64,000 nt of DNA, from NCBI GenBank assembly GCA_036407095.1, contig DASWZV010000163.1:57105-121104 (forward strand). The letters are read 5' to 3'. The translations under genes and the position numbers were made by a program. Positions 29,666-41,236 of the stretch are shown here, piece after piece. The stretch is from Vicinamibacterales bacterium. Its GTDB lineage: Bacteria; Acidobacteriota; Vicinamibacteria; Vicinamibacterales; UBA2999. Position 1 is the stretch's first letter. Each line of letters opens with the position of its first letter. The notes under the pieces were generated by a model, which made no database searches, had not been told where the DNA came from, and was given only the letters and a program-made list of their open reading frames with translations.

Positions 29666-30688
29666 CTAGACGCGGCCGGCTCCCTGGCGTTCAGACGCAC
29701 GGGCCACTTCGACGAGGTCGCGCACTGCAGCGACAATCACCTCGGGCTCGTCGAACTGAATCCAATGCGTGCTCCGCCCGGCCGTGATGTGCCGCCCGCG
29801 TGACGAGCTCTCCGCAAGCTTGCGATGAACAACGAGCTCCTCGAGCGGCTGATTGCCGCTCGAAATCACGACCACCGGCACGTCGGGTGGAGGCGCGTAT
29901 CTGGCCAGCGACGCCCCTTCCCGCTCGAACGCTTCCAGATGATCCCGCATGGAGCGGAAGCATTTCGGCTGACACCAGATCGCTCGCACGACGGGATGCA
30001 CATCCGGCGGAAGCTTCCGCACTTCCAGCACGAACCGCTCCAGATTCTGTGCAGCAGTAGGACCGAAGATCTTGACGAATCGACGCGGCGCGCCCGGCAT
30101 ACCACCGACGAGCAGCGCCAGGCACGCACGGACGACTCCGACGTGGGCAAGCCAGCCGCCGATGCTCGAGAAGAATCGCCCGCCACGAAGCAGACGCGCG
30201 CGCGCTGGCGTCATCGTCAACCATTCGGTCGGCGGATCGACGAGCACGATGCCGGCGACGCTCAGTGGATGTCGCGCGGCGTAGGCGCGAACGACGAACG
30301 TTCCGAACGAGTGGCCGACCAGCACGAACGGCCCGCGGCCATCGACGCGTGCGAGGACGGATGCGAGCTCGTCGACGATGCGGTCCAGCGTTCTGGCCTG
30401 CGACGGCGCGTCGCTCCACGCCAGCCCCGCGCGATCGTAGGCGCAGACACGTGCGAACGTCGCGATCTGCGGTTGCACTGCCGCCCAGCTGAGAGACGAG
30501 GCGGCGATGCCGGCCTCGAGCAGGACCACCGGGCCGCCTTCGCCCCTGCAGTTGACGTGCACCCGATGGCCACCGACGTCAACCATTTGCCCCGGAGGCG
30601 GGAAGAATCGACGATCACGCCGCTGACCTGACCATTGATAGGCCCAGCCAAGCGCGAGGAGCGCAAGAACACCGCCGAGAAACACCAC
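29666..30688 (-). CDS. membrane-anchored alpha/beta hydrolase
   Basis: N-terminal TM VFLGGVLALLALGWAY. Nucleophile elbow LVGHSFGT. 340 aa. Confidence 0.75.
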   Translation of the reverse strand: MVFLGGVLALLALGWAYQWSGQRRDRRFFPPPGQMVDVGGHRVHVNCRGEGGPVVLLEAGIAASSLSWAAVQPQIATFARVCAYDRAGLAWSDAPSQARTLDRIVDELASVLARVDGRGPFVLVGHSFGTFVVRAYAARHPLSVAGIVLVDPPTEWLTMTPARARLLRGGRFFSSIGGWLAHVGVVRACLALLVGGMPGAPRRFVKIFGPTAAQNLERFVLEVRKLPPDVHPVVRAIWCQPKCFRSMRDHLEAFEREGASLARYAPPPDVPVVVISSGNQPLEELVVHRKLAESSSRGRHITAGRSTHWIQFDEPEVIVAAVRDLVEVARASERQGAGRV

Positions 30689-31027
30689 GGTTCAATCGTC
30701 GATCCGATCTCGAGGCGCGGCAAGGGATTCGACCGCATCGAGACGCTGATGTGAGAACAGCGTGACAGCGAAACAGTGGTTCAGCTGCACTGGACGAGCT
30801 CGCCGCATCAGGTAGGCAGACGTAGTCGCGTCTGTCGGCGACGCTGCAACATCGACCGCGACTTGTCGTGAACTGCAACACGTCTTCGTGATGTGGACGA
30901 TTCGACACACCGAATTTTTCGCGGCAAATCGCGATCGGGCGGGCGCACATCCTCGCGAGAACGGGAATGCTGATTGCACTCAGCGCGCGAACGGCACTGC
31001 CGCTTGAAAACGGAAGACCGGCTGCCT

Positions 31028-31501
31028 ATGGATCCCGATATCCCGATCGAGGCCCAGGACATCGTACGGGCATACATGACGGTGCTCGAGCATCAGTACC
31101 GTACGAACGAGTCGTTCCCGATGCCTCTGTCGACACTGCCGTATCCGAAGCCCATCATCAAACGATCGATGAAGACGATGGTCGTGTCGCTGTCGGCGAC
31201 CGGCCAGTTGACGTCGGAGCTGCGCGACGGGCTCGAAATCGCGTATGCCACGCTCGCCGACTACCTGGACGACGAACTGGTTCAGGTCATGCGCGAATAC
31301 AGCGCCGCGATGTCGGAGCTCGATGGCGACGGACGAATCGGCCGCGAAAAGACGAGCACCACGGCATGGGGTCGAATATCTGCGACGAGCTCGCTCGTGG
31401 CTCGCATCGCGCAGGCTTCGGCAGAGGAGGCCGACACTCTCCGAGCCGAGTTTCATTCTTTCCAGCCGCAGACCGCGGCGCCCGCATCGACCGGTACCTG
31501 A
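31028..31501 (+). CDS. acidic helical hypothetical protein, 157 aa
   Basis: Uses ATG 31028 within ORF 30974..31501. It ends 42 nt before the next gene on the same strand. I recognise no motif. Confidence 0.45.
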   Translation: MDPDIPIEAQDIVRAYMTVLEHQYRTNESFPMPLSTLPYPKPIIKRSMKTMVVSLSATGQLTSELRDGLEIAYATLADYLDDELVQVMREYSAAMSELDGDGRIGREKTSTTAWGRISATSSLVARIAQASAEEADTLRAEFHSFQPQTAAPASTGT

Positions 31502-31543
31502 ACGCTCTTAATTACTCTCACAGCACAGAGAGGAGCCAGATCC

Positions 31544-33337
31544 ATGAGTCACGCTCCCACGATGTCCCCGGCGCGCATCACGTCACGCGCCGATATCGAA
31601 GCTGAAATCAGTCGTCGTCTGGCCGCGGAACGCGCACGACTGGAGGGCGAGGCTGGCATTCGCATACGTCCGGTCGAGCACTTCAAGCGACCGGCTGAAC
31701 TGGCGTTCACCGCGGATCAGCGTGATCGCGTCACGATTCTGATTGGCGGGTTGACCTGGAAGCACGACGCGCTCGTCCGGGCGGCGATGCAGTCGGCCGG
31801 CTATCGGGTCGAGGTCATGCCGATCCCCGATGTTCCCGCGTTCCAGCTCGGAAAGGAATACGGCAACAACGGTCAGTGCAACCCGACCTACTTCATGGTC
31901 GGCCACCTGATTCAGTTTCTCCAGAATCTCGAGCGGCAGGGGATGTCGCGCCAGGACATCATCGACCGCTATGTCTTCTTCACCGCCGGCTCGTGCGGTC
32001 CGTGCCGCTTCGGCATGTACGAAGCCGAGTACCGGCTCGCGGTGCAGAACGCCGGGTTCGACGGATTTCGAATTCTGCTGTTTCAGCAGACCGACGGCGT
32101 GAAGTCGGCGACCGGCGAACCAGGACTGAAGTTCACGGTCGACTTCGGCATGGGCGCCTTTGCCGGGCTCAACTTCGGCGACGTGCTCAACGACGTCACG
32201 TATCAGATCCGTCCGTTCGAGGCGCAGTCTGGCGAGACCGATCGCGTCGTCGACGAGTGCATGGCGTATCTCACTTCACGCATGCGCGAGCGCGAGATGT
32301 ACGACCTGAGGAAGTCGACGAGCTTCATCGGCTCGCGCATGGCGAAGAAGCCGAAGCTCGAGGGCATCTTCAACACGCTCGGCAAAGTGCACGACCACCT
32401 CTACGGCCGTCAGACCGACGAGACGCTGCGCCATCTGCGCGATCGCCTCGCGACGATCGACGTCGACCGTCTCCGCGTGAAACCGATCGTCAAGGTCACC
32501 GGCGAATTCTGGGCGCAGACCACCGAGGGCGACGGCAACTTCCGGATGTTCAGCTTCCTCGAACGCGAGGGCGCGCAGGTGATCGTCGAGCCGATCGGCA
32601 CCTGGGCGCTGTACATGTTGTGGCTCGCCAAAGCAACGCACGCGGCGAAGAAAGGCCTCAACGGGCAGGGCTGGAAGCACGAACTCCAGCACCGGTTGAA
32701 GCAGGGCTACTTCGCGCTCGGGCGCCGCTTCTACGCGCACCAGTACCGCCGCGTCGTGCGCGCGCTCGGCGACATCGCGCACCCGCTCGTCAGCCTCGAG
32801 GAGCTCGCGACGCTCGCCTCTCCGTACTACAACGTGTTCGCCCGCGGCGGTGAAGGCCACATGGAAGTGGCCAAGAACATCTACTACACGACCCACAAGA
32901 AGTGTCACATGGTGCTGAGCCTCAAGCCCTTCGGCTGCATGCCGTCATCGCAGTCCGATGGGGTGCAGTCGGCGGTCATGAGCCACTTCAAGGACATGAT
33001 CTTCCTGCCGATCGAGACGTCGGGCGAGGGTGAGGTCAACGCGCATAGCCGCGTGCAGATGGCGCTCGGTGAAGCCAAGATCAAAGCCAAAGCGGAGTTT
33101 CAGCAGGCGCTGGAGTCGACGGGCAAACGGCTCGACGACGTACGAGCGTTCGTCGCGGATCACCCGGTGTTGCGAAATCCCTTCTACAAAGTGCCGCATC
33201 GGCATGGAATCACGGGCACGGCAGCCACGTTCGTGCTCCACGTCAGCGACCTGATGGATGGCAAAGCGCGCTGGGCAGCGACGCCGAAGACGACTGCATC
33301 GGCTACAGGCAACGCGACTCTAAAGCAGGCGTCGTAA
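31544..33337 (+). CDS. 2-hydroxyacyl-CoA dehydratase-like subunit (DUF2229/HGD-D-type), PlsR-like
   Basis: Motifs GNNGQCNPTYF, GSCGPCRFGMYEAEY and KPFGCMPS. GAGGAG RBS. 597 aa. Confidence 0.75.
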   Translation: MSHAPTMSPARITSRADIEAEISRRLAAERARLEGEAGIRIRPVEHFKRPAELAFTADQRDRVTILIGGLTWKHDALVRAAMQSAGYRVEVMPIPDVPAFQLGKEYGNNGQCNPTYFMVGHLIQFLQNLERQGMSRQDIIDRYVFFTAGSCGPCRFGMYEAEYRLAVQNAGFDGFRILLFQQTDGVKSATGEPGLKFTVDFGMGAFAGLNFGDVLNDVTYQIRPFEAQSGETDRVVDECMAYLTSRMREREMYDLRKSTSFIGSRMAKKPKLEGIFNTLGKVHDHLYGRQTDETLRHLRDRLATIDVDRLRVKPIVKVTGEFWAQTTEGDGNFRMFSFLEREGAQVIVEPIGTWALYMLWLAKATHAAKKGLNGQGWKHELQHRLKQGYFALGRRFYAHQYRRVVRALGDIAHPLVSLEELATLASPYYNVFARGGEGHMEVAKNIYYTTHKKCHMVLSLKPFGCMPSSQSDGVQSAVMSHFKDMIFLPIETSGEGEVNAHSRVQMALGEAKIKAKAEFQQALESTGKRLDDVRAFVADHPVLRNPFYKVPHRHGITGTAATFVLHVSDLMDGKARWAATPKTTASATGNATLKQAS

Positions 33338-33378
33338 ACGGCATGCCCATCGGCTTGCGCAGAAGAAGCAGGTGAGAC

Positions 33379-36300
33379 ATGGCGAACACACAGTACCTGG
33401 TGGGCCTCGATGTTGGTTCGACGACGGTGAAGGCCGTGGCCATCGACGCGACGACCGACGAGATGGTGTGGTCGGACTATCAACGCCACGAGACCAAGCA
33501 GCCTGAGAAGACGCTCGAGTTCCTTCAGCGGCTCGAGACCGACCTGCAGATCGGCGCCGGCAACTGCCGCATGTTCATCACCGGATCGGGCGGCAACACG
33601 CTGGCGCCGAGAATCGGTGCCAAGTTCGTGCAGGAGGTCACCGCCGTCTCGCTCGCAGTCGAAAAGCTCCATCCCGAGGTGAATTCGGTGATCGAGCTCG
33701 GCGGACAGGACGCCAAGATCATCGTCTTCAAGGAAGACTCCGAGAGCGGGCGCAAGAAGAAGATCCCGTCGATGAACGACAAGTGCGCCGGCGGCACTGG
33801 CGCCGTGATCGACAAGATCAACGCGAAGCTCAAGATTCCAGTCGAGGAGCTCGGACGCCAGCGGTACGATGGCATCAAGCTGCACAAGGTCGCCGGCAAA
33901 TGCGGCGTCTTCGCCGAGACCGATATCAATGGGCTCCAGAAGGAAGGCACGCCGTCCGACGAGCTGATGGCGTCGCTCTTCGACGCGATCGTGCTGCAGA
34001 ACCTGACGGTACTCACTCGCGGCCATACGCTCCGGCCGCACGTCCTGCTGCTCGGGGGCCCGAATACGTTCATCGACGGCATGCGCGAAGCGTGGCAGGC
34101 CAACATCCCGAAGGTCTGGAAGGAACGCGGCATCGAGATTCCCTCCGGTGAGACCCCGCAGTCGCTGATCAAGACACCGAGGAACGCGCAGTACTTCGCG
34201 GCGCTCGGCGCCGTCGAGTTCGGCAAAGGCGAAGACGATACAGTCGGCCAGTACTTGGGTATGTCGGATCTCGAGCACTACATCACCATCGGCCGTCTCG
34301 AAGAGAAGGCGGCGTCAGGTGGTCGAGGCTTGAGTGCATCGGTCGACGAGCTTGCGACATTCAAAGAGCAATACAAGCCGAAGCGATTTGTCGCGCCTCC
34401 CCTACCCGCGGGCGCGAGCGTTCAGGGATTCATCGGCGTCGACGGCGGGTCGACATCCACCAAAGCGGTCCTGCTCTCTCCCGACGGCGACGTTCTGCGG
34501 AAGGTCTATCAGCTCTCGAAGGGCAACCCGATCCAGGACGCCATCGACATGTTCACCTCGCTGCGTTCGCAAGTCGAGGAGGCGGGCTCCACGCTCGAGG
34601 TGCTGGGGGTCGGGACGACCGGCTACGCCAAGGACATCCTGCGCGATGTGCTGCAGGCGGACGCGGCGCTCGTCGAGACCGTCGCGCACACCGAGTCGGC
34701 AATCAAGTTCTACAGCGACCCGCACGTCATCGTCGACGTCGGCGGACAGGACATCAAGCTGATCGTGCTGACCGACGGACGCGTCAAGGACTTCCGGCTG
34801 AACACACAGTGCTCGGCCGGCAACGGCTACTTCCTGCAGTCGACGGCCGACAGCCTCGGCGTCCCGCTGACCGAGTACGCGGACCGCGCGTTCGCCGCCG
34901 ACGCGATGCCGATCTTCGGGTACGGCTGCGCTGTCTTCATGCAGTCCGACATCGTCAACTTCCAACGTCAGGGATGGGCGCCGGAAGAGATCCTTGCCGG
35001 CCTGGCAGCGGTCCTGCCCAAGAACATCTTTCTCTACGTCGCCAGCATTCCCAACCTGGCGAAGCTCGGCAGCCGTTTCATTCTGCAGGGCGGCACGCAG
35101 CACAACCTCGCGGCGGTCAAAGCCGAGGTCGACTTCATCCGCTCCAATTTCCGTGGCGCGGCGGTGCAGCCCGAGATCATCGTCCACGAACACTGCGGCG
35201 AGTCGGGCGCGATCGGCGCGGCCGTCGAGGCGCTGCGGCTGTGGAAGAACGGGCACCGCACGACGTTCATCGGCTTGAACGCTGTTGAAAAGATCAGCTA
35301 CCGCACGACACGCAACGAGGCGACGCGCTGCTACTTCTGCAAGAACAACTGTCTGCGGACGTTCATCGACATCAAGATGTCCTCCTCCGCGGCCGTGAAT
35401 GGTGCGGCCGCTGCGACGGAGGACAAGTCCGCGCCTGCGCCGCAGCCGGCTCCAGTCGCCGCGCCGCTCAAGTTCGTGTCGAAGGTGCCGAAGGCGGACG
35501 ATGAGCAGCGCCTCATCATCTCGACGTGCGAGAAAGGCAGCGTCGAGGATGTCGAGGCGATGCGGACGATCAAGGCGGGACTCGACTCGAAAAAGAAGTC
35601 GCACCCCAATTTCGTCGATATCGCCGCGCGCGAAGTGTGGCGTACACGCAGCCCGGAGTCGGTCGCCGATCCGCTGCCGAAGCCGCGCGCGTTCGATCGC
35701 GCGGGCCGCGCTCGCCTCGACGCGATGACGCGACGGGGGGCGTTGCGCATCGGCATGCCGCGCGTGCTCAACATGTACACGTATGCGCCGTTCTTCAGCG
35801 GCTACTTCGAGAGCCTGGGCGTGCTCGGCGGGAACCTCGTGTACTCGGACTTCACGACCAACGAGCTGTACCGCGAGGGCGCCGGCCGCGGCGCGATCGA
35901 TCCCTGCTTCCCTGCCAAGATCGGCATCGCGCACGTCCACAACCTCCTGGTCGCGAAGCACGCGAAGAAGAAGCTCGACTACATCTTCTTCCCGATGGTC
36001 GACACGCTCCACACCGAGCTGACGCACCTGCAGGGCTCGAACGCCTGTCCCACCGTGACCGTGACGCCAGAGACGGCGAAAGCCGCGTTTATCAAGGAAG
36101 GCGACATCTTTGCGGAGCAGGGCATCACGTACCTCAACCCGATTCTGAACTTCGACGACCTGCCGTTGCTCAAACGTCAGATGTTCAGGACGTGGGCCGG
36201 AGCGCTCGGTCTCTCAGAGGACGAGAACGCACGCGCCACCGAGATCGGCTTGCGTGAACTTGCGGCGTATGAAACCGACATCCGGCGCCGCGCCCGCGAA

Positions 36301-36990
36301 GTGCTGGACGAGCTGGAACGCGAGAACCGGATCGGCATCGTGCTCCTGGCGCGGCCGTACCATCACGACCCGGGCCTCAATCACGAGATCCTCGATGAGT
36401 TCCAGAAGCTCGGGTACCCGGTCTTCACCCAGAGCACTCTCCCCCTGGATGACGACCTGCTCGAGCGGTTCTTCGGCGACGAAGTGCGTGCCGGAGTGAT
36501 CCCCGGTCCGAAGGCGATCACCGACGTCTGGAAGAACTGCTACTCGGCGAACACCAACTTGAAGGTGTGGGCCGCCAAACTGACGGCGCGGCACCCGAAT
36601 CTCGTGGCGCTCGAGATGTCGAGCTTCAAGTGCGGTCACGACGCGCCGATCTACTCGGTCATCGAATCGATCATCGAGAAATCGGGCACGCCCTACTTCT
36701 CGTTCAAGGACATCGACGAGAACAAGCCGACCGGCTCGATCAGGATCCGCGTCGAGACGATGCACTACTTCCTGAAGCGCTACACCGAGGACAAGCAGCG
36801 CAAGAAGGACGCGGCGGCGGCCATCGACGTCGAGCTCGCCGCATACGAACAACGTCTCCGGGCGGAGCTGCTGCAGGCTGAAGAGTTCGCCGAGGTCAGC
36901 GCGCGAGGACGTGAGGCGTTCAAGGGGCGGATGGTGCCGCTGATACCGGTTCCGGCGCAGAGTGCCTGCGAGAGCATTGCTGCTGATTGA
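33379..36990 (+). CDS. fused double BcrAD/BadFG-type ATPase (activase) + dehydratase-like C-terminal half, PlsA-like, 1203 aa
   Basis: Two ATPase modules (LVGLDVGSTTVKA and FIGVDGGSTSTKA). Each carries the paired cluster cysteines: NDKCAGGTG with GKCGVFAETD, and NTQCSAGNG with GYGCAVFMQSD. These are followed by CYFCKNNC, an Ala/Pro linker, then DPCFPAK, SNACPTVT and FKCGHDAP. Confidence 0.8.
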   Translation: MANTQYLVGLDVGSTTVKAVAIDATTDEMVWSDYQRHETKQPEKTLEFLQRLETDLQIGAGNCRMFITGSGGNTLAPRIGAKFVQEVTAVSLAVEKLHPEVNSVIELGGQDAKIIVFKEDSESGRKKKIPSMNDKCAGGTGAVIDKINAKLKIPVEELGRQRYDGIKLHKVAGKCGVFAETDINGLQKEGTPSDELMASLFDAIVLQNLTVLTRGHTLRPHVLLLGGPNTFIDGMREAWQANIPKVWKERGIEIPSGETPQSLIKTPRNAQYFAALGAVEFGKGEDDTVGQYLGMSDLEHYITIGRLEEKAASGGRGLSASVDELATFKEQYKPKRFVAPPLPAGASVQGFIGVDGGSTSTKAVLLSPDGDVLRKVYQLSKGNPIQDAIDMFTSLRSQVEEAGSTLEVLGVGTTGYAKDILRDVLQADAALVETVAHTESAIKFYSDPHVIVDVGGQDIKLIVLTDGRVKDFRLNTQCSAGNGYFLQSTADSLGVPLTEYADRAFAADAMPIFGYGCAVFMQSDIVNFQRQGWAPEEILAGLAAVLPKNIFLYVASIPNLAKLGSRFILQGGTQHNLAAVKAEVDFIRSNFRGAAVQPEIIVHEHCGESGAIGAAVEALRLWKNGHRTTFIGLNAVEKISYRTTRNEATRCYFCKNNCLRTFIDIKMSSSAAVNGAAAATEDKSAPAPQPAPVAAPLKFVSKVPKADDEQRLIISTCEKGSVEDVEAMRTIKAGLDSKKKSHPNFVDIAAREVWRTRSPESVADPLPKPRAFDRAGRARLDAMTRRGALRIGMPRVLNMYTYAPFFSGYFESLGVLGGNLVYSDFTTNELYREGAGRGAIDPCFPAKIGIAHVHNLLVAKHAKKKLDYIFFPMVDTLHTELTHLQGSNACPTVTVTPETAKAAFIKEGDIFAEQGITYLNPILNFDDLPLLKRQMFRTWAGALGLSEDENARATEIGLRELAAYETDIRRRAREVLDELERENRIGIVLLARPYHHDPGLNHEILDEFQKLGYPVFTQSTLPLDDDLLERFFGDEVRAGVIPGPKAITDVWKNCYSANTNLKVWAAKLTARHPNLVALEMSSFKCGHDAPIYSVIESIIEKSGTPYFSFKDIDENKPTGSIRIRVETMHYFLKRYTEDKQRKKDAAAAIDVELAAYEQRLRAELLQAEEFAEVSARGREAFKGRMVPLIPVPAQSACESIAAD

Positions 36991-37002
36991 GCGGGGGACA
37001 TC

Positions 37003-38295
37003 ATGCCAGTACGTGCCATCGAAGACGTCACGTCAGCACAAGGTAATGGCGCGGCGGCGGCACCGACATTCATTCGACTGCGACAGGAGGTCGTCGATCG
37101 GCCCGAGCGGACGGCCGCGCCGCGCCCGGCGGGCCAGCGATTGCCTGATCCGGTGTTTCCACATCGGCCCGAGCTGCTGACCGATCACGAGTTGCCGGGC
37201 GACGGCACGCGCCACTGGTCGCGGGCCCACAAATGGCGCGCGTTGCGCGGCTGGGCGGTGCCCTATTTCCAGTCGCGGCTGCTGCCGGGCGATTTCCACC
37301 CGATCGTCACGTATCTCTTCACCGAGTACAAGTGCAACCTCGATTGCCACTACTGCTACTCGTACGACAACCGCGTCAAAGGTATGAGCGAAGAGATGGC
37401 ACGCGGTGCCATCGACTGGCTGCACGGGACGACGTGCCGCGTGCTCGCTCTGATGGGCGGCGAGGTGCTGCTCCGGCCGCAGTTCGTGCACAAGGTCGTC
37501 GACTACGCGGCCAGCAAAGGCTTCTGGATCTACATCCCGACGAACGGACGCTTGCTGAAGCCGGCGGTGATCGATCGCCTCGCCGACGCCGGCGTGGCGA
37601 CGTTCAACCTTGCCGTCGATGCGGTGAACGAGCGGCCCGGGCTGCCCAAGGCGCTCAATCCCATCAGGGCGTACTTCGAGTATTTGATCAGCAAGCAATA
37701 TCGATACGGCTATACGGTCTTTTTCAACGTCAACATCTGCCACAACAACATGGAGGACGTACGCGAGCTGACGGAGATCGCGCACGCCAACGGGATTTCA
37801 ACCGACTACCACCTGAACGAGCGCCCGCTGCTCGAGCAGAGTCACTTCACGCACCTGAGCGACGAGAACCCGACGTATCTGCGGCCGGACGACCAGGGGC
37901 GCATCAACGAGCTGATCGACTGGCTGATCGACAAACAGCGGAGCGGCTACGTGATGACCAACTCGAACGAGAGCCTGGCCCTGATGAAGGACTTCCTCCG
38001 AGGCGAGCTCGAGCCGTGGAACTGCCGCGCCGGTCACAACACGATGATCATCCGCGTCGACGGCACCCTGGCCCCCTGCTTCCCGATGTACTCGGCGACG
38101 CACGACTGGGGGGTGATCGGCGCGCCAAAGTTCGAGCGCGCCCAGCTCGCCGAGATGAAGAAGACCTGCGAGCGACACTGCTACTCGACGCTCAACCACA
38201 TCGTCGGCTACGGCTACAACGATCGACGCGTGATCCAGTGGCTGTGGAAACAGGCACGAAACGGATTCCGAGGCGTCCGCGGGAACTTCGAGTAG
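37003..38295 (+). CDS. radical SAM protein with C-terminal auxiliary Cys-rich domain
   Basis: CNLDCHYC (37333-37356), MGGEVLLRP, and C-terminal WNCRAGHNTMIIRVDGTLAPC...TCERHC. It starts 12 nt after the previous stop. Confidence 0.85.
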   Translation: MPVRAIEDVTSAQGNGAAAAPTFIRLRQEVVDRPERTAAPRPAGQRLPDPVFPHRPELLTDHELPGDGTRHWSRAHKWRALRGWAVPYFQSRLLPGDFHPIVTYLFTEYKCNLDCHYCYSYDNRVKGMSEEMARGAIDWLHGTTCRVLALMGGEVLLRPQFVHKVVDYAASKGFWIYIPTNGRLLKPAVIDRLADAGVATFNLAVDAVNERPGLPKALNPIRAYFEYLISKQYRYGYTVFFNVNICHNNMEDVRELTEIAHANGISTDYHLNERPLLEQSHFTHLSDENPTYLRPDDQGRINELIDWLIDKQRSGYVMTNSNESLALMKDFLRGELEPWNCRAGHNTMIIRVDGTLAPCFPMYSATHDWGVIGAPKFERAQLAEMKKTCERHCYSTLNHIVGYGYNDRRVIQWLWKQARNGFRGVRGNFE

Positions 38296-38310
38296 ATCGT
38301 TAGTCCCAGG

Positions 38311-38367
38311 GTCCGGCTTTAGCCGGACAGACGTAGCCGGACAGACGTAGTGTCCGCCTTCAGGCGG
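38311..38367. terminator. family 3 REP-like hairpins after the radical SAM gene
   Basis: GTCCGGC-TTTA-GCCGGAC at 38311-38328 and CCGCC-TTCA-GGCGG at 38354-38367. Confidence 0.5.
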
Positions 38368-38388
38368 CCTCACGTCAGTGTCACTGAA

Positions 38389-38610
38389 TGCGCCAGCCAG
38401 GGTGACGCATCCTTCCGCGCGGCGATCCGCTCGCCCGGCCAAAGACATCTCCGGCGCATGCCCTCACGCGTACGTCGCCGCTCCTCCGTCGCAAGAGCCT
38501 GACGATGTTGCTTCTCCCCCGCGGCTCCCTTCGCCTGCGATGTCTTTGGCGGCACGCTGCACGGGCTCGCTCCACGCCGCGCTCCAGGATGCATCACCCT
38601 GGCTGGCGCA
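38389..38610. mobile_element. MITE-like element X (family 4), 222 bp with 24-bp terminal inverted repeats
   Basis: TGCGCCAGCCAGGGTGACGCATCC at 38389-38412 against GGATGCATCACCCTGGCTGGCGCA at 38587-38610 (1 mismatch). The interior is homologous, in reverse orientation, to element Y. Confidence 0.7.
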
Positions 38611-38641
38611 ACTGTCCGCGAACCCGCCCCGTCACAGTCAG

Positions 38642-38914
38642 CAGCACCCGACTGGCTGATGCATTCCGGAGTGCCGCGTGGAGCGAGCCGCGTACGCGAG
38701 AGTCGCCAATGGCTTCGCAGGCGTCGCGAGCGGCGGATGGAGGAGCAACCGCGTCAGACTCTTGCGACGGGGGAGCCGCGAGAAACCGGCAGCGCACACG
38801 CCGGAGATGCTATTGGCCGGCGAGCGGATCGCGGCGCGGAGGAGTGCGTCAGCCAGTCGGGTGCTGGCCGGCGTCGGGGACGGCCATCGTCGGTCGTCGT
38901 CCCTGATCCCTGCC
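38642..38914. mobile_element. MITE-like element Y (family 4) with 26-bp TIRs plus 45-bp tail
   Basis: CAGCACCCGACTGGCTGATGCATTCC at 38642-38667 against GGAGTGCGTCAGCCAGTCGGGTGCTG at 38841-38866. The tail 38870-38914 matches 22136-22180 in reverse complement. Confidence 0.7.
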
Positions 38915-38935
38915 CGACTCCGATACGATGTGTAC

Positions 38936-38989
38936 GCTGCGCGGCTCGCTCCACGCCGCGCTCCAGGATGCATCAACCTGACTGACGCA
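38936..38989. repeat. half copy of element X (right end only)
   Basis: GCGGCTCGCTCCACGCCGCGCTCCAGGATGCATCAACCTGACTGACGCA closely matches 38562-38610. Confidence 0.7.
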
Positions 38990-39086
38990 TCTGTCGCCGA
39001 CAGAGCTGTGCGTTCTCACACCCCGGACACCCACGTCTATCTACCGCCCACACGCAACTGGGGACTCCGGTGTAACATGCCCGGCC

Positions 39087-39590
39087 ATGGCGCGGACGCT
39101 TGCACGCGTTGTGGTTCTGGCGATCGTACTCGCAGGTGCCGGCACTGCCCTGCTCGCCCAGACGCCGGGCGACGCTGCACGAGGGAAAGCGATCTACAGC
39201 GGCAAGGGCGCGTGTGCCACGTGCCATCAGGTGAACGGCGTCGGGTCGCGACTGGGACCGGACCTGAGCGAGATCGGCAACTCCAGAAGCTCCGATCATC
39301 TCGAGCGCTCGCTCGTCGAGCCTGACGCCGAGGTGCTCGGCAACAACCGCTTTTACCACGTCGTCACGAAAGACGGCACGACGATCACCGGCCGGCTCCT
39401 GAACCTCGATACGTTCACGATTCAGCTGCTCGATTCCAAAGAGCGTCTCCGGACGTTCGTGAAGGCCGATCTGCGGGACCACGGCTTCGACAAGTCGCCG
39501 ATGCCGTCGTACAAGGACAAGCTCACCGCCCAGGAGCTCGCCGATCTCGTGAGCTATCTCGCCTCGCTGAAGGGACAGGCCACACCATGA
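39087..39590 (+). CDS. secreted c-type cytochrome
   Basis: Signal peptide. Heme motif CATCH (39213-39227). Distal SPMPSY region. Its stop overlaps the next start (ATGA at 39587-39590). Confidence 0.85.
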   Translation: MARTLARVVVLAIVLAGAGTALLAQTPGDAARGKAIYSGKGACATCHQVNGVGSRLGPDLSEIGNSRSSDHLERSLVEPDAEVLGNNRFYHVVTKDGTTITGRLLNLDTFTIQLLDSKERLRTFVKADLRDHGFDKSPMPSYKDKLTAQELADLVSYLASLKGQATP

Positions 39591-41236
39591 CGGCTTCGAC
39601 ACGCATTGCGACGGTCGTGTTCTGCATCCTGATTGGCGCGGTGCTGGCCGCGCAGGACGTCACGTTCGATCGCATCATGCGCGCCGATCGCGAGCCGCAG
39701 AACTGGTTGTCGTACTCGGGCACCGTCCTCAATCAGCGGTTCAGCCCGTTGACGCAGATCGCTCCTGCCAACGTGAAGAACCTCGAGCTGCAGTGGATCT
39801 GGCAGGCCAGGTCGCTCGAGAAGTTCGAGGCGACCGCCATCGCCGTCGATGGAGTGCTCTACACCGTGCCGGGGCCGCCTGTGAACGGCACCTATCAGGT
39901 AGTCGCCCTCGACGGTGTGACCGGGCGCCCCTACTGGACGACCGAGTACAGGCCTGGGTCCGATGCCGGTCCCTGCTGCGGGCGCGTGAGCCGCGGGCTG
40001 GCCATTCTGGGCGACACGCTGTACCTCGGCACGATCGACGCGCATCTGCTCGCGCTCGACGCGAAGACCGGGCGCGTGCTCTGGAACGTCGAAGCCGCGA
40101 AAGCATCTGACAAGTACTCGATCACGCACGCGCCTCTCGTGCTCAAGGACAAGATCATCGTCGGCGTCGCCGGCGGCGATCGCGGCATACGCGCGTTCAT
40201 CGCCGCCTACGACGCGAAGAACGGCAAGCAACTGTGGCGGTTCTGGACGATTCCCGGCCCCGGCGAGCCCGGCAACGACTCGTGGTCCGGCGAGTCGTGG
40301 AAGACCGGCGGCGCAGCGGTGTGGAACAGCGGTGCCTACGATGCCGAGGCGAATCTGGTCTACTTCGGCACCGGCAATCCCTGGCCCGATCGCGACGGCA
40401 GCGTGCGGCTCGGCGACAACCTGTACAGCGACAGCGTGGTCGCCCTCGATCCCGACACCGGCAAGTTGAAGTGGCACTACCAGTTCACACCGCACGATCA
40501 GATGGACTACGACTCCACGCAGGTGCCGATCCTCGCGGACCTGCAGTGGCAGGGGCGGCCGCGCAAGGTGATGTTGTGGGCGAACCGGAACGGCGTGGCG
40601 TACGTACTCGATCGCGTCACCGGTGAATTCCTGCTGGGACGACCGTTCGTGCGCGTGAACTGGATCGACGGCTTCGACAACAAGGGCCGCCCGCAGCGTG
40701 TGCCCGGCAAGCTCCCGACGCCGGAAGGCGAACTGATCATGCCGACGGTGCTCGGTGCCACCAACTGGGCACCCGCCTCGTTCAGCCCGAAGACCGGCCT
40801 GTTCTACGTATCGGTGTGGGAGAACACCGGCACGATCGCGACATCGGGCGGTGGACGCGGCGGTCCGCAGCGGACTGTTCCGGGAACCGGCGGCACGCCG
40901 ATGGGTCAGGCGACGCTGACACCAAACACGAAGAAAGAGGATGAAGGGTACGGAGCCGTTCGCGCCTTCGATCCCCACACGCTCGACAAGAAGTGGGAGT
41001 TCAAGATGAACGACATCACGTGGGCCGGCGTGCTCACGACCGCATCCGACCTGGTGTTCAGCGGAGGCAAGGAGGGCTACTTCTTCGCGCTCGACGCCCG
41101 CAGCGGCGACCTGCTGTGGAAGGCGGCGCTCGGTGGGCAGGTCAACAGCGGCCCAATGACGTACTCGGTGAATGGCAAGCAATACATCACCGTAACCGCC
41201 GGCAACGCGCTCTTCGCGTTCGCCCTCAGACCGTGA
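39587..41236 (+). CDS. PQQ-dependent dehydrogenase, methanol/ethanol family (quinoprotein), with D-Y-D motif
   Basis: Signal peptide. NWLSYSG. Vicinal CC in DAGPCCGRVSRG (39974-39979). TPHDQMDYD (DYD at 40505-40513). Repeated beta-propeller W motifs. 549 aa. Confidence 0.85.
   Translation: MTASTRIATVVFCILIGAVLAAQDVTFDRIMRADREPQNWLSYSGTVLNQRFSPLTQIAPANVKNLELQWIWQARSLEKFEATAIAVDGVLYTVPGPPVNGTYQVVALDGVTGRPYWTTEYRPGSDAGPCCGRVSRGLAILGDTLYLGTIDAHLLALDAKTGRVLWNVEAAKASDKYSITHAPLVLKDKIIVGVAGGDRGIRAFIAAYDAKNGKQLWRFWTIPGPGEPGNDSWSGESWKTGGAAVWNSGAYDAEANLVYFGTGNPWPDRDGSVRLGDNLYSDSVVALDPDTGKLKWHYQFTPHDQMDYDSTQVPILADLQWQGRPRKVMLWANRNGVAYVLDRVTGEFLLGRPFVRVNWIDGFDNKGRPQRVPGKLPTPEGELIMPTVLGATNWAPASFSPKTGLFYVSVWENTGTIATSGGGRGGPQRTVPGTGGTPMGQATLTPNTKKEDEGYGAVRAFDPHTLDKKWEFKMNDITWAGVLTTASDLVFSGGKEGYFFALDARSGDLLWKAALGGQVNSGPMTYSVNGKQYITVTAGNALFAFALRP

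Follow-up and report, generated by a model that had tools for sequence, protein, structure and literature searches.

A split PlsA-PlsR/Ger-like Fe-S module recurrently linked to a radical SAM enzyme in Acidobacteriota: a candidate ether-lipid system

A stretch of 64,000 nucleotides from a soil bacterium of the Vicinamibacterales (Acidobacteriota; assembly GCA_036407095.1, contig DASWZV010000163.1, positions 57,105 to 121,104), referred to below as the window, contains four adjacent genes on its forward strand: g0 (31028..31501), g1 (31544..33337), g2 (33379..36990) and g3 (37003..38295). The products of g1 and g2 together probably belong to the ATP-dependent Fe-S enzymes of the benzoyl-CoA reductase (BCR)/2-hydroxyacyl-CoA dehydratase (HAD) superfamily, and we consider it somewhat probable that the two form a split ester reductase of the PlsA-PlsR/Ger type, with g3 encoding a clade-specific partner of the radical S-adenosylmethionine (SAM) family. 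There are good grounds, as a functional prediction by homology, for likening g1-g2 to PlsA/PlsR, and the literature already puts this hypothesis forward for an apparent orthologue. What is new here is the split second subunit, which is invisible to Pfam, and the breadth of the module in Acidobacteriota; the recurrent, order-shuffled link to a dedicated twitch-like radical SAM enzyme also looks new. The brGDGTs (branched glycerol dialkyl glycerol tetraethers) rank among the terrestrial proxies for palaeotemperature and pH in widest use, and their biosynthetic genes in Acidobacteria are known as hypotheses only. A compact three- or four-gene set opens a direct test of acidobacterial ether-lipid synthesis and a better assignment of the producers of these proxy lipids.

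The larger protein, g2 (1203 aa), has the layout of the BBD, the part of Ger/PlsA proteins that is reported to be conserved in all alkyl-ether producers (Sahonero-Canavesi et al.; PMC13159169). Two PF01869 domains (BcrAD_BadFG; E 4e-71) are followed by one PF09989 domain (DUF2229; E 4e-51; residues 790-1019, 35746..36435). The first ATPase module spans approximately residues 6-330 (33394..34368) and carries the cluster cysteines C136 and C175, and the second (residues 352-618, 34432..35232), which provides the best PF01869 stretch, carries C478 and C517; both pairs are of the HgdC type and are invariant in 59 sequences (cysteine conservation was scored across 36-81 orthologues, depending on the protein). 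The two actin-fold ATPase modules with HgdC-type cysteine pairs that the original prediction had read from the sequence are thus present, as are all the motifs it quoted from g1, g2 and g3, with their cysteines invariant in the orthologues scored. The cysteine-rich linker that follows the modules (35329..35529) includes an Ala/Pro-rich spacer and contributes C651, C654, C658 and C717 (CX2CX3C...C), which are likewise invariant and probably bind an extra [4Fe-4S] cluster. The C-terminal half adds three further invariant cysteines, C843 and C890 inside the DUF2229 domain and C1085 in the C-terminal extension. Identity of g2 to 58 acidobacterial orthologues has a median of 70%, with relatives at the fetched loci sharing 67-79%.

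In NCBIfam, g2 matches the acyl-CoA dehydratase activase model TIGR00241 and otherwise generic activase and BCR subunit models, and its scores against the BCR equivalog models are all far under the cut-offs. The nearest relatives of solved structure, as found by sequence matches to the PDB, are the activators MbdQ, HgdC and HadI (4eht, HadI, over residues 6-228). Accordingly built systems such as HgdCAB, HadIBC, BcrABCD, BzdNOPQ and DCCP/DCCP-R share with g2 the ATP-driven injection of electrons, the actin-fold ATPases and the bridging cluster. However, 2-hydroxyacyl-CoA dehydratases and benzoyl-CoA reductases proper possess a separate activator of ~260 aa, or BcrAD, and PF06050 subunits, whereas the ATPases of g2 are tandem-fused to DUF2229; and, unlike in systems of the HgdCAB/BcrABCD type, no conserved CoA-pathway genes were found near the module at the 80 g1 loci described below.

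The companion protein, g1 (597 aa), would be the PlsR-like second catalytic (reduction/dehydration) subunit. It has no match in Pfam, even at E<=10, or in NCBIfam, and only chance matches were retrieved from the PDB with either the single sequence or a g1 profile. Four of its cysteines (C112, C151, C154 and C465) are invariant. The best-probability Foldseek matches of its AlphaFold2 model (pLDDT 78.6) are the catalytic subunits BzdNO, DCCP and MbdON (probability 0.77-0.92), with no match at E<=1e-3; the BCR/DCCP catalytic subunits thus appear as structural neighbours of a predicted model and lend the PlsA-PlsR/Ger-type assignment weak support. Homologues of g1 number in the thousands in databases (57-89% identity), the median identity among acidobacterial orthologues being 59%, and a search of 1.84 billion representative proteins returned 336 clusters at E<=1e-30 and 1896 at the looser cut-off of E<=1e-3. 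Fusions found in nature come in both orders: P0280 (1623 aa) consists of g1 and then a BBD, and P0285 (1579 aa) of a BBD and then a g1-like module. Since g1 and g2 are adjacent wherever the contig allows (see below) and fused in both orders, we infer that they constitute one functional unit, like PlsA and PlsR. No radical SAM gene adjoins either of the two fusions, so that the link to g3 looks specific to the acidobacterial clade.

Three minor observations concern g1 and its relatives. P0277 (1271 aa) joins a g1-like module to a GltD-like Fer4_20/Pyr_redox_2 NAD(P)H flavoprotein and a 2x[4Fe-4S] ferredoxin and has no ATPase partner; it could be an ATP-independent form of the enzyme that is driven by pyridine nucleotides. 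In the genomic context of P0285 (locus L163), the fusion is flanked by a divergent gene for a prolipoprotein diacylglyceryl transferase (LGT, which uses phosphatidylglycerol) and by a gene for an Rce1-like protease, and this is the sole hint of a lipid-related neighbour at any locus. Finally, the only match that hhalign returned between g1 and g2, which is not significant, pairs residues 15-41 of g1 (31586-31666) with residues 1142-1168 of g2 (36802-36882), 27 residues at 33% identity; the two helices, N-terminal in g1 and C-terminal in g2, could be docking helices of a split enzyme.

PlsA/PlsR of Clostridium perfringens (CPE1195/CPE1194), described as Act1-Act2-Red1 plus Red2 and present as one fused gene in facultative anaerobes (PMC12838417), resembles g1-g2 in its two ATPase and two reduction/dehydration modules spread over two adjacent genes, in belonging to the BCR/HAD superfamily and conserving its cluster cysteines and, to judge from the locus tags (CPE1194/CPE1195 and Acid_0921/0922), in placing the small subunit first. 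The subunits differ in size (597 aa for g1 versus 420 aa for PlsR; 1203 aa for g2 versus 1004 aa for PlsA), and the single-gene PlsA of Enterococcus and Lactococcus carries both modules in one gene, whereas g1/g2 are split. PlsAR makes vinyl ethers, whereas acidobacterial ethers are described as saturated alkyl ethers (PMC13159169, PMC10087280), the type produced by Ger (Thermotoga maritima Tmari_0479; Desulfatibacillum alkenivorans SHJ90043). Ger, however, is one polypeptide, in T. maritima with the BBD followed by small PF06050/PF09989 fragments (BBDHDDH; PMC13159169), whereas g1 is a separate upstream gene devoid of Pfam signal; moreover, Ger works anaerobically only, whereas the window genome, with its pyrroloquinoline quinone (PQQ) dehydrogenase and cytochrome c, looks aerobic. 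In the literature searched, no radical SAM partner has been described as linked to PlsAR or reported for Ger, whereas g3 is often linked to g1-g2.

Closer to the window, Halamka et al. aligned Acid_0922 of Solibacter usitatus (1188 aa) with PlsA (30.2% identity, 96% coverage, E 1.5e-126) and Acid_0921 (589 aa) with PlsR (20.9% identity, 96% coverage, E 2e-14; PMC10087280 Table S6), and proposed the two as makers of the brGDGT ether bonds (PMC10087280). The pair agrees with g1/g2 in sizes, order and phylum, and a Bryobacteraceae contig with called genes carries such a pair (589 aa, then 1190 aa with BcrAD_BadFG and DUF2229) with a radical SAM gene (438 aa) directly upstream. The role of Acid_0921/0922 in S. 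usitatus is itself a hypothesis, and the literature searched mentions no radical SAM gene linked to them; nor was any link between a radical SAM gene and PlsAR/Ger-type genes found in the searchable literature. A look-up by name for S. usitatus, with the Bryobacteraceae g1 as query and then among clusters, returned no entry under that organism's name. Acidobacterial BBD proteins have already been named Ger homologues (PMC13159169, PMC13023045 and a 2026 preprint), and such homologues were reported for E. aggregans and H. foetida, which produce ethers, whereas most aerobic acidobacteria in culture are reported to have none (PMC13159169). As far as PMC13023045 relays the work of Chen et al. 2025, S. 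usitatus, which has Tes and Ger homologues, makes brGDGTs, K. versatilis, which has Tes alone, makes tetraesters only, and the Tes homologues of both are linked to tetraester synthesis. The original prediction, which treated the genetics of these lipids in Acidobacteriota as largely unresolved, therefore overstated its novelty: a part for PlsAR/Ger in acidobacterial ether lipids is an already published hypothesis (PMC10087280, PMC13023045).

A scan of species-representative genomes with the g1 alignment yielded at least 573 confirmed stretches, and the locus analyses concern the best 80 of these, the gene content of which was determined by phmmer. All 80 are acidobacterial by sequence similarity, with g1 identities of 63-74% in Vicinamibacterales and 57-63% in Acidobacteriaceae/Terriglobales, Korobacteraceae, Sulfotelmatobacter, Acidiferrales and Bryobacterales. 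The gene adjoins g2 at every one of these loci where the contig allows, and g3 adjoins the pair in 32 of the 57 loci with full flanks, so that the radical SAM gene is indeed syntenic in relatives, a point on which the original prediction had staked itself. Three gene orders occur, all with short spacers: g1-g3-g2 in the majority of Acidobacteriaceae and Korobacteraceae, g3-g1-g2 in several loci of Terriglobales and Bryobacterales (and, in divergent orientation, in one Vicinamibacterales locus), and g1-g2-(g0)-g3 in the window and in loci L004, L037 and L069. Starting from g3 instead, g1/g2 are present at 16 of the 26 metagenomic loci that extend at least 2.5 kb to either side. The 25 remaining complete g1-g2 loci have no g3 within 10 kb, and at the other 10 g3 loci the gene stands without g1-g2 in varied, unrelated contexts; these unlinked fractions (44% and 38%) would fit genomes that hold both g3 and g1-g2, sometimes apart. 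Any other neighbour is conserved in 14 of the 80 loci at most, those found (UbiD, histidine kinase, sigma-54 regulator, ferredoxin, DinB and ABC ATPase) being lineage-specific, and the divergent alpha/beta hydrolase of the window is not conserved at other loci. The extent of conservation across classes (medians of 70% for g2 and 59% for both g1 and g3) would fit a constrained core function. Four loci (L005, L024, L039 and L058) with acidobacterial-type g1-g2(-g3) at 59-69% identity come from metagenome-assembled genomes (MAGs) labelled Bifidobacteriaceae, Binatia or Acidimicrobiia; these labels are probably binning or taxonomy errors.

The partner protein g3 (430 aa) is, as predicted, a member of the radical SAM family (PF04055, E 1e-17) with an invariant CX3CX2C core (C111/C115/C118). 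No match to the SPASM family of Pfam (PF13186) was detected in it, but its C-terminal part possesses an invariant C341-x12-G354-x4-C359 followed by an equally invariant C389-x3-C393, an arrangement that is twitch-like (the twitch motif being CX9-15GX4C), suggesting that g3 probably carries one auxiliary cluster. The same CX3CX2C core and C-terminal CX12GX4C are found in twitch/SPASM enzymes such as BlsE, the BtrN-type enzymes, anSME and CteB. The top Foldseek matches of its AlphaFold model (pLDDT 65, falling below 50 exactly in the twitch-like cysteine segments) are the SPASM/twitch proteins CteB, BlsE, anSME, SuiB and PqqE, plus viperins. Unlike both twitch/SPASM and lipid radical SAM enzymes, however, g3 has only four or five auxiliary cysteines and an N-terminal extension of ~100 aa, which is conserved among its orthologues, and its scores against NCBIfam equivalog models are all ~50 bits or less, versus cut-offs of 180-725. 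Homologues of g3 are again found in the thousands (57-89% identity), and its orthologues share 57-73% across Acidobacteriota. The protein is probably a clade-specific radical SAM partner acting in the same pathway as g1-g2. A role as a methylase or ring synthase was considered and ruled out, as Pfam detects no B12-binding domain. In the window, residue 404 of g3 (38212-38214) is Gly, versus Cys in at least 90% of the aligned orthologues (GYGYND vs GFCYND), and one of the five conserved C-terminal cysteines is thereby missing in this genome.

By analogy with HgdC/BCR and with the mechanism proposed for PlsAR, the two fused actin-fold ATPase modules of g2 would hold a bridging [4Fe-4S] cluster on C136/C175/C478/C517, and ATP hydrolysis would push a low-potential electron through the cysteine-rich linker. 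The electron would arrive at a catalytic pair made up of the DUF2229 half of g2 and g1, which would turn a glycerolipid's ester carbonyl into an alk(en)yl ether by reduction and dehydration. Both the electron path and the lipid substrate of such an ester-to-ether conversion are extrapolated from these relatives, and the choice of a lipid draws on homology and on a small culture correlation reported second-hand. As for g3, the role we favour, as a guess, is one more modification of the lipid product of g1-g2, for example vinyl-ether or chain processing. An added chemical step is favoured over an obligatory maturase because PlsAR and Ger need no radical SAM partner for activity in E. coli (PMC13159169, PMC12838417), which is an argument and not a test. 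The more far-reaching proposal that g3 founds a new lipid-modifying radical SAM family, performing a step of acidobacterial ether/brGDGT synthesis on the g1-g2 product, is tentative, and we hold it to be rather unlikely; the candidate steps would then include the conversion of a vinyl ether into a saturated alkyl ether, the formation of the sn-2 ether or a chain change.

Several observations weigh against the PlsA-PlsR/Ger-type assignment or the partnership with g3. Even at E<=10, PF06050 (HGD-D) matches neither g1 nor the C-terminal half of g2, although the architecture of Ger past the BBD, PF06050 part included, varies between proteins (PMC13159169). The Foldseek matches of g1 are weak (E 0.03-0.24, TM 0.26-0.41), and hhalign comparisons of g1 with the C-terminal half of g2, carried out with an acidobacterial and then with a more diverse g1 alignment, are not significant (probability <1%); the second run paired GQC112NP with DPC843FP and SC151GPC with NAC890P, which we do not count as evidence of paralogy. 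The published identities of the presumed orthologues to PlsA and PlsR are just 30% and 21%, the orthology of g1/g2 with Acid_0921/0922 is itself deduced from size, order and taxon, and the likeness of g1/g2 to PlsA/PlsR/Ger is drawn from domain layout and from figures published for a presumed orthologue. Alkyl glycerol ethers of Acidobacteria are listed for subdivisions SD1 and SD4 only (PMC13159169), and the group of the window, subdivision 6, falls outside that list. No conserved lipid-metabolism gene was found near the module at the 80 g1 loci or the 10 stand-alone g3 loci, g3 fails to adjoin at about 40% of loci, and the independence of PlsAR and Ger from a radical SAM protein in E. coli, cited above, counts against a need for g3. 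The original prediction of a PlsA/PlsR/Ger-like module is upheld in part, by the BBD layout and by the match in size and order to Acid_0921/0922 but not by PF06050; of the families it had named for checking, PF01869 and PF09989 were recovered in g2 and PF04055 in g3, and PF06050 (g1, g2) and SPASM (g3) were not. Its broader idea of a lipid-remodelling system, which it supposed might be induced by low oxygen, draws on homology and on the culture correlation but finds no support in the gene context.

Among the alternatives, the one deserving most attention, which we regard as unlikely, is that g1-g2 act on a non-lipid compound (an acyl-CoA, an aromatic or another carbonyl), that the radical step of g3 takes place on that same compound, and that the likeness to PlsAR/Ger reflects the superfamily only. 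The lack of conserved lipid genes, a neighbourhood that includes UbiD, ferredoxin, kinases and regulators, the missing family assignment of g1 and the generic NCBIfam matches of g2 would all suit such an enzyme, and few BBD proteins have a demonstrated function (PMC13159169). Catabolic modules, however, are seldom kept at 57-79% identity across the classes of a phylum and seldom occur in hundreds of genome stretches without conserved pathway neighbours; the published alignment of the presumed orthologue with PlsA covers 96% (E 1e-126; PMC10087280), and the correlation with ether lipids in culture, as far as it is relayed in PMC13159169 and PMC13023045, also opposes a non-lipid substrate. Somewhat less likely again is that g3 is a maturase of g1-g2, modifying the protein or fitting it with an unusual Fe-S cofactor, and does not act on the lipid. 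Its fold and family neighbours anSME, CteB, SuiB, PqqE and the tungsten-cofactor oxidoreductase maturase TIGR04317 do modify proteins or cofactors, and the relatives of g1 include double-cubane cluster proteins; but PlsAR and Ger dispense with such a partner in E. coli, the fused g1/g2 relatives outside the acidobacterial clade have no adjoining radical SAM gene, and no candidate target peptide was identified.

We consider it very unlikely that g3 is the acidobacterial enzyme for the tail-to-tail coupling that yields iso-diabolic acid and brGDGTs, in the manner of Tes or Mss. In its favour, Acidobacteria are reported to have yielded no Mss homologues, and of 14 producers of iso-diabolic acid only 3 had a Tes homologue (PMC13159169); g3 itself offers a radical SAM core, extra conserved cysteines for an auxiliary cluster and a match of its profile to GDGT-MAS (7tol, E 7e-7). 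This match, however, covers residues 107-231 only and is no better than those to viperin and CteB, and GDGT-MAS is absent from the top 50 fold matches of g3; Tes has ~500 aa or more and several auxiliary clusters, whereas g3 has 430 aa and 4-5 extra conserved cysteines, and full-length similarity between the two was not found, so that the likeness to Tes/GDGT-MAS suggested in the original prediction shrinks to the radical SAM core. In addition, because g3 follows g1-g2 and Ger homologues are absent from most cultured iso-diabolic-acid acidobacteria (PMC13159169), g3 is unlikely to be the general coupling enzyme, and the tetraesters of K. versatilis and S. usitatus are now tied to Tes homologues, at least in the account that PMC13023045 gives. 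Least probable of all, and only marginally behind, is that the adjacency is incidental and g3 an unrelated housekeeping radical SAM protein of Acidobacteriota. The 25 g1-g2 loci and 10 g3 loci at which the two are apart, the latter in variable contexts, would be expected under it, but the adjacency survives three gene orders, including one with g3 between g1 and g2, spans Vicinamibacterales, Terriglobales, Korobacteraceae, Bryobacterales and Sulfotelmatobacter, and is matched by no other neighbour.

With g1-g2 taken as a split PlsA-PlsR/Ger-type unit, at least several hundred species-representative genome stretches would carry it, and surveys may under-call it in Acidobacteriota, as it consists of two genes, the second subunit having no Pfam model. 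A 2026 preprint reports BBD 'ger' matches in MAGs of sponge symbionts, some of them Acidobacteriota, that are said to miss the second reduction domain, and a FEMS paper scores Solibacteraceae as devoid of PlsR (PMC13023045); a split g1 without Pfam signal could explain both. If g3 does prove to be lipid-modifying, soil producers of brGDGTs or ether lipids would be better recognised in genomes by the three-gene module than by 'Ger' matches alone.

The four genes are separated by 42 nt (g0/g1), 41 nt (g1/g2) and 12 nt (g2/g3), and the coordinates originally given for the three larger genes and for the acidic open reading frame (ORF) of 157 aa ahead of them were all confirmed, as was a purine-rich ribosome-binding site 5' of the starts of g1, g2 and g3 (GAGAGGAG, AGGTGAG and GGGGGA, respectively). 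The G+C content of the window is 63-66% and long antisense ORFs are also present; given the thousands of homologues of g1 and g3, and the relatives and strong Pfam domains of g2, g0-g3 are real genes and not artefacts of high G+C. No transmembrane segments are predicted in any of the four proteins. The first, g0, is an acidic (pI 4.7), cysteine-free protein of 157 aa, delimited by ORF calling, without a match in Pfam or NCBIfam. Of the 9 Vicinamibacterales/gp6-type loci fetched, 6 have a homologue (35-43% identity) beside the cluster, either 5' of g1 or between g2 and g3, and it occurs only in Vicinamibacterales loci; g0 is thus an accessory protein of this order.

Upstream of the cluster lie genes for HtpG, a Ser/Thr kinase, an ORF without Pfam match and the divergent alpha/beta hydrolase mentioned above; a scan of the locus for promoters and terminators gave background levels only. 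The downstream side, said originally to hold only repeat hairpins, consists of ~790 nt of nested repeats followed by genes for a small cytochrome c, a PQQ dehydrogenase, a glyoxalase-family protein and a resistance-nodulation-division (RND) pump. No second radical SAM gene, and hence no Tes homologue, is present in the window. The non-coding repeats (38296-39086) comprise nested inverted repeats with arms of 30-67 nt and 73-89% complementarity, two copies of a 58-nt direct repeat with 90% identity (38564-38621 and 38943-39000) and a tandem 14-mer. Their 33-nt core has no other copy within the window, and an Rfam scan of 30500-39600 returned no match; the region could represent either a miniature mobile element that has decayed or a structured intergenic element. 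Beyond it, a small secreted c-type cytochrome with a CATCH haem motif (39087-39590) overlaps by 4 nt (ATGA) with the PQQ-dependent dehydrogenase (39587-41236). The two are probably an electron-acceptor/dehydrogenase pair, which points to an aerobic lifestyle beside a presumably oxygen-sensitive module.

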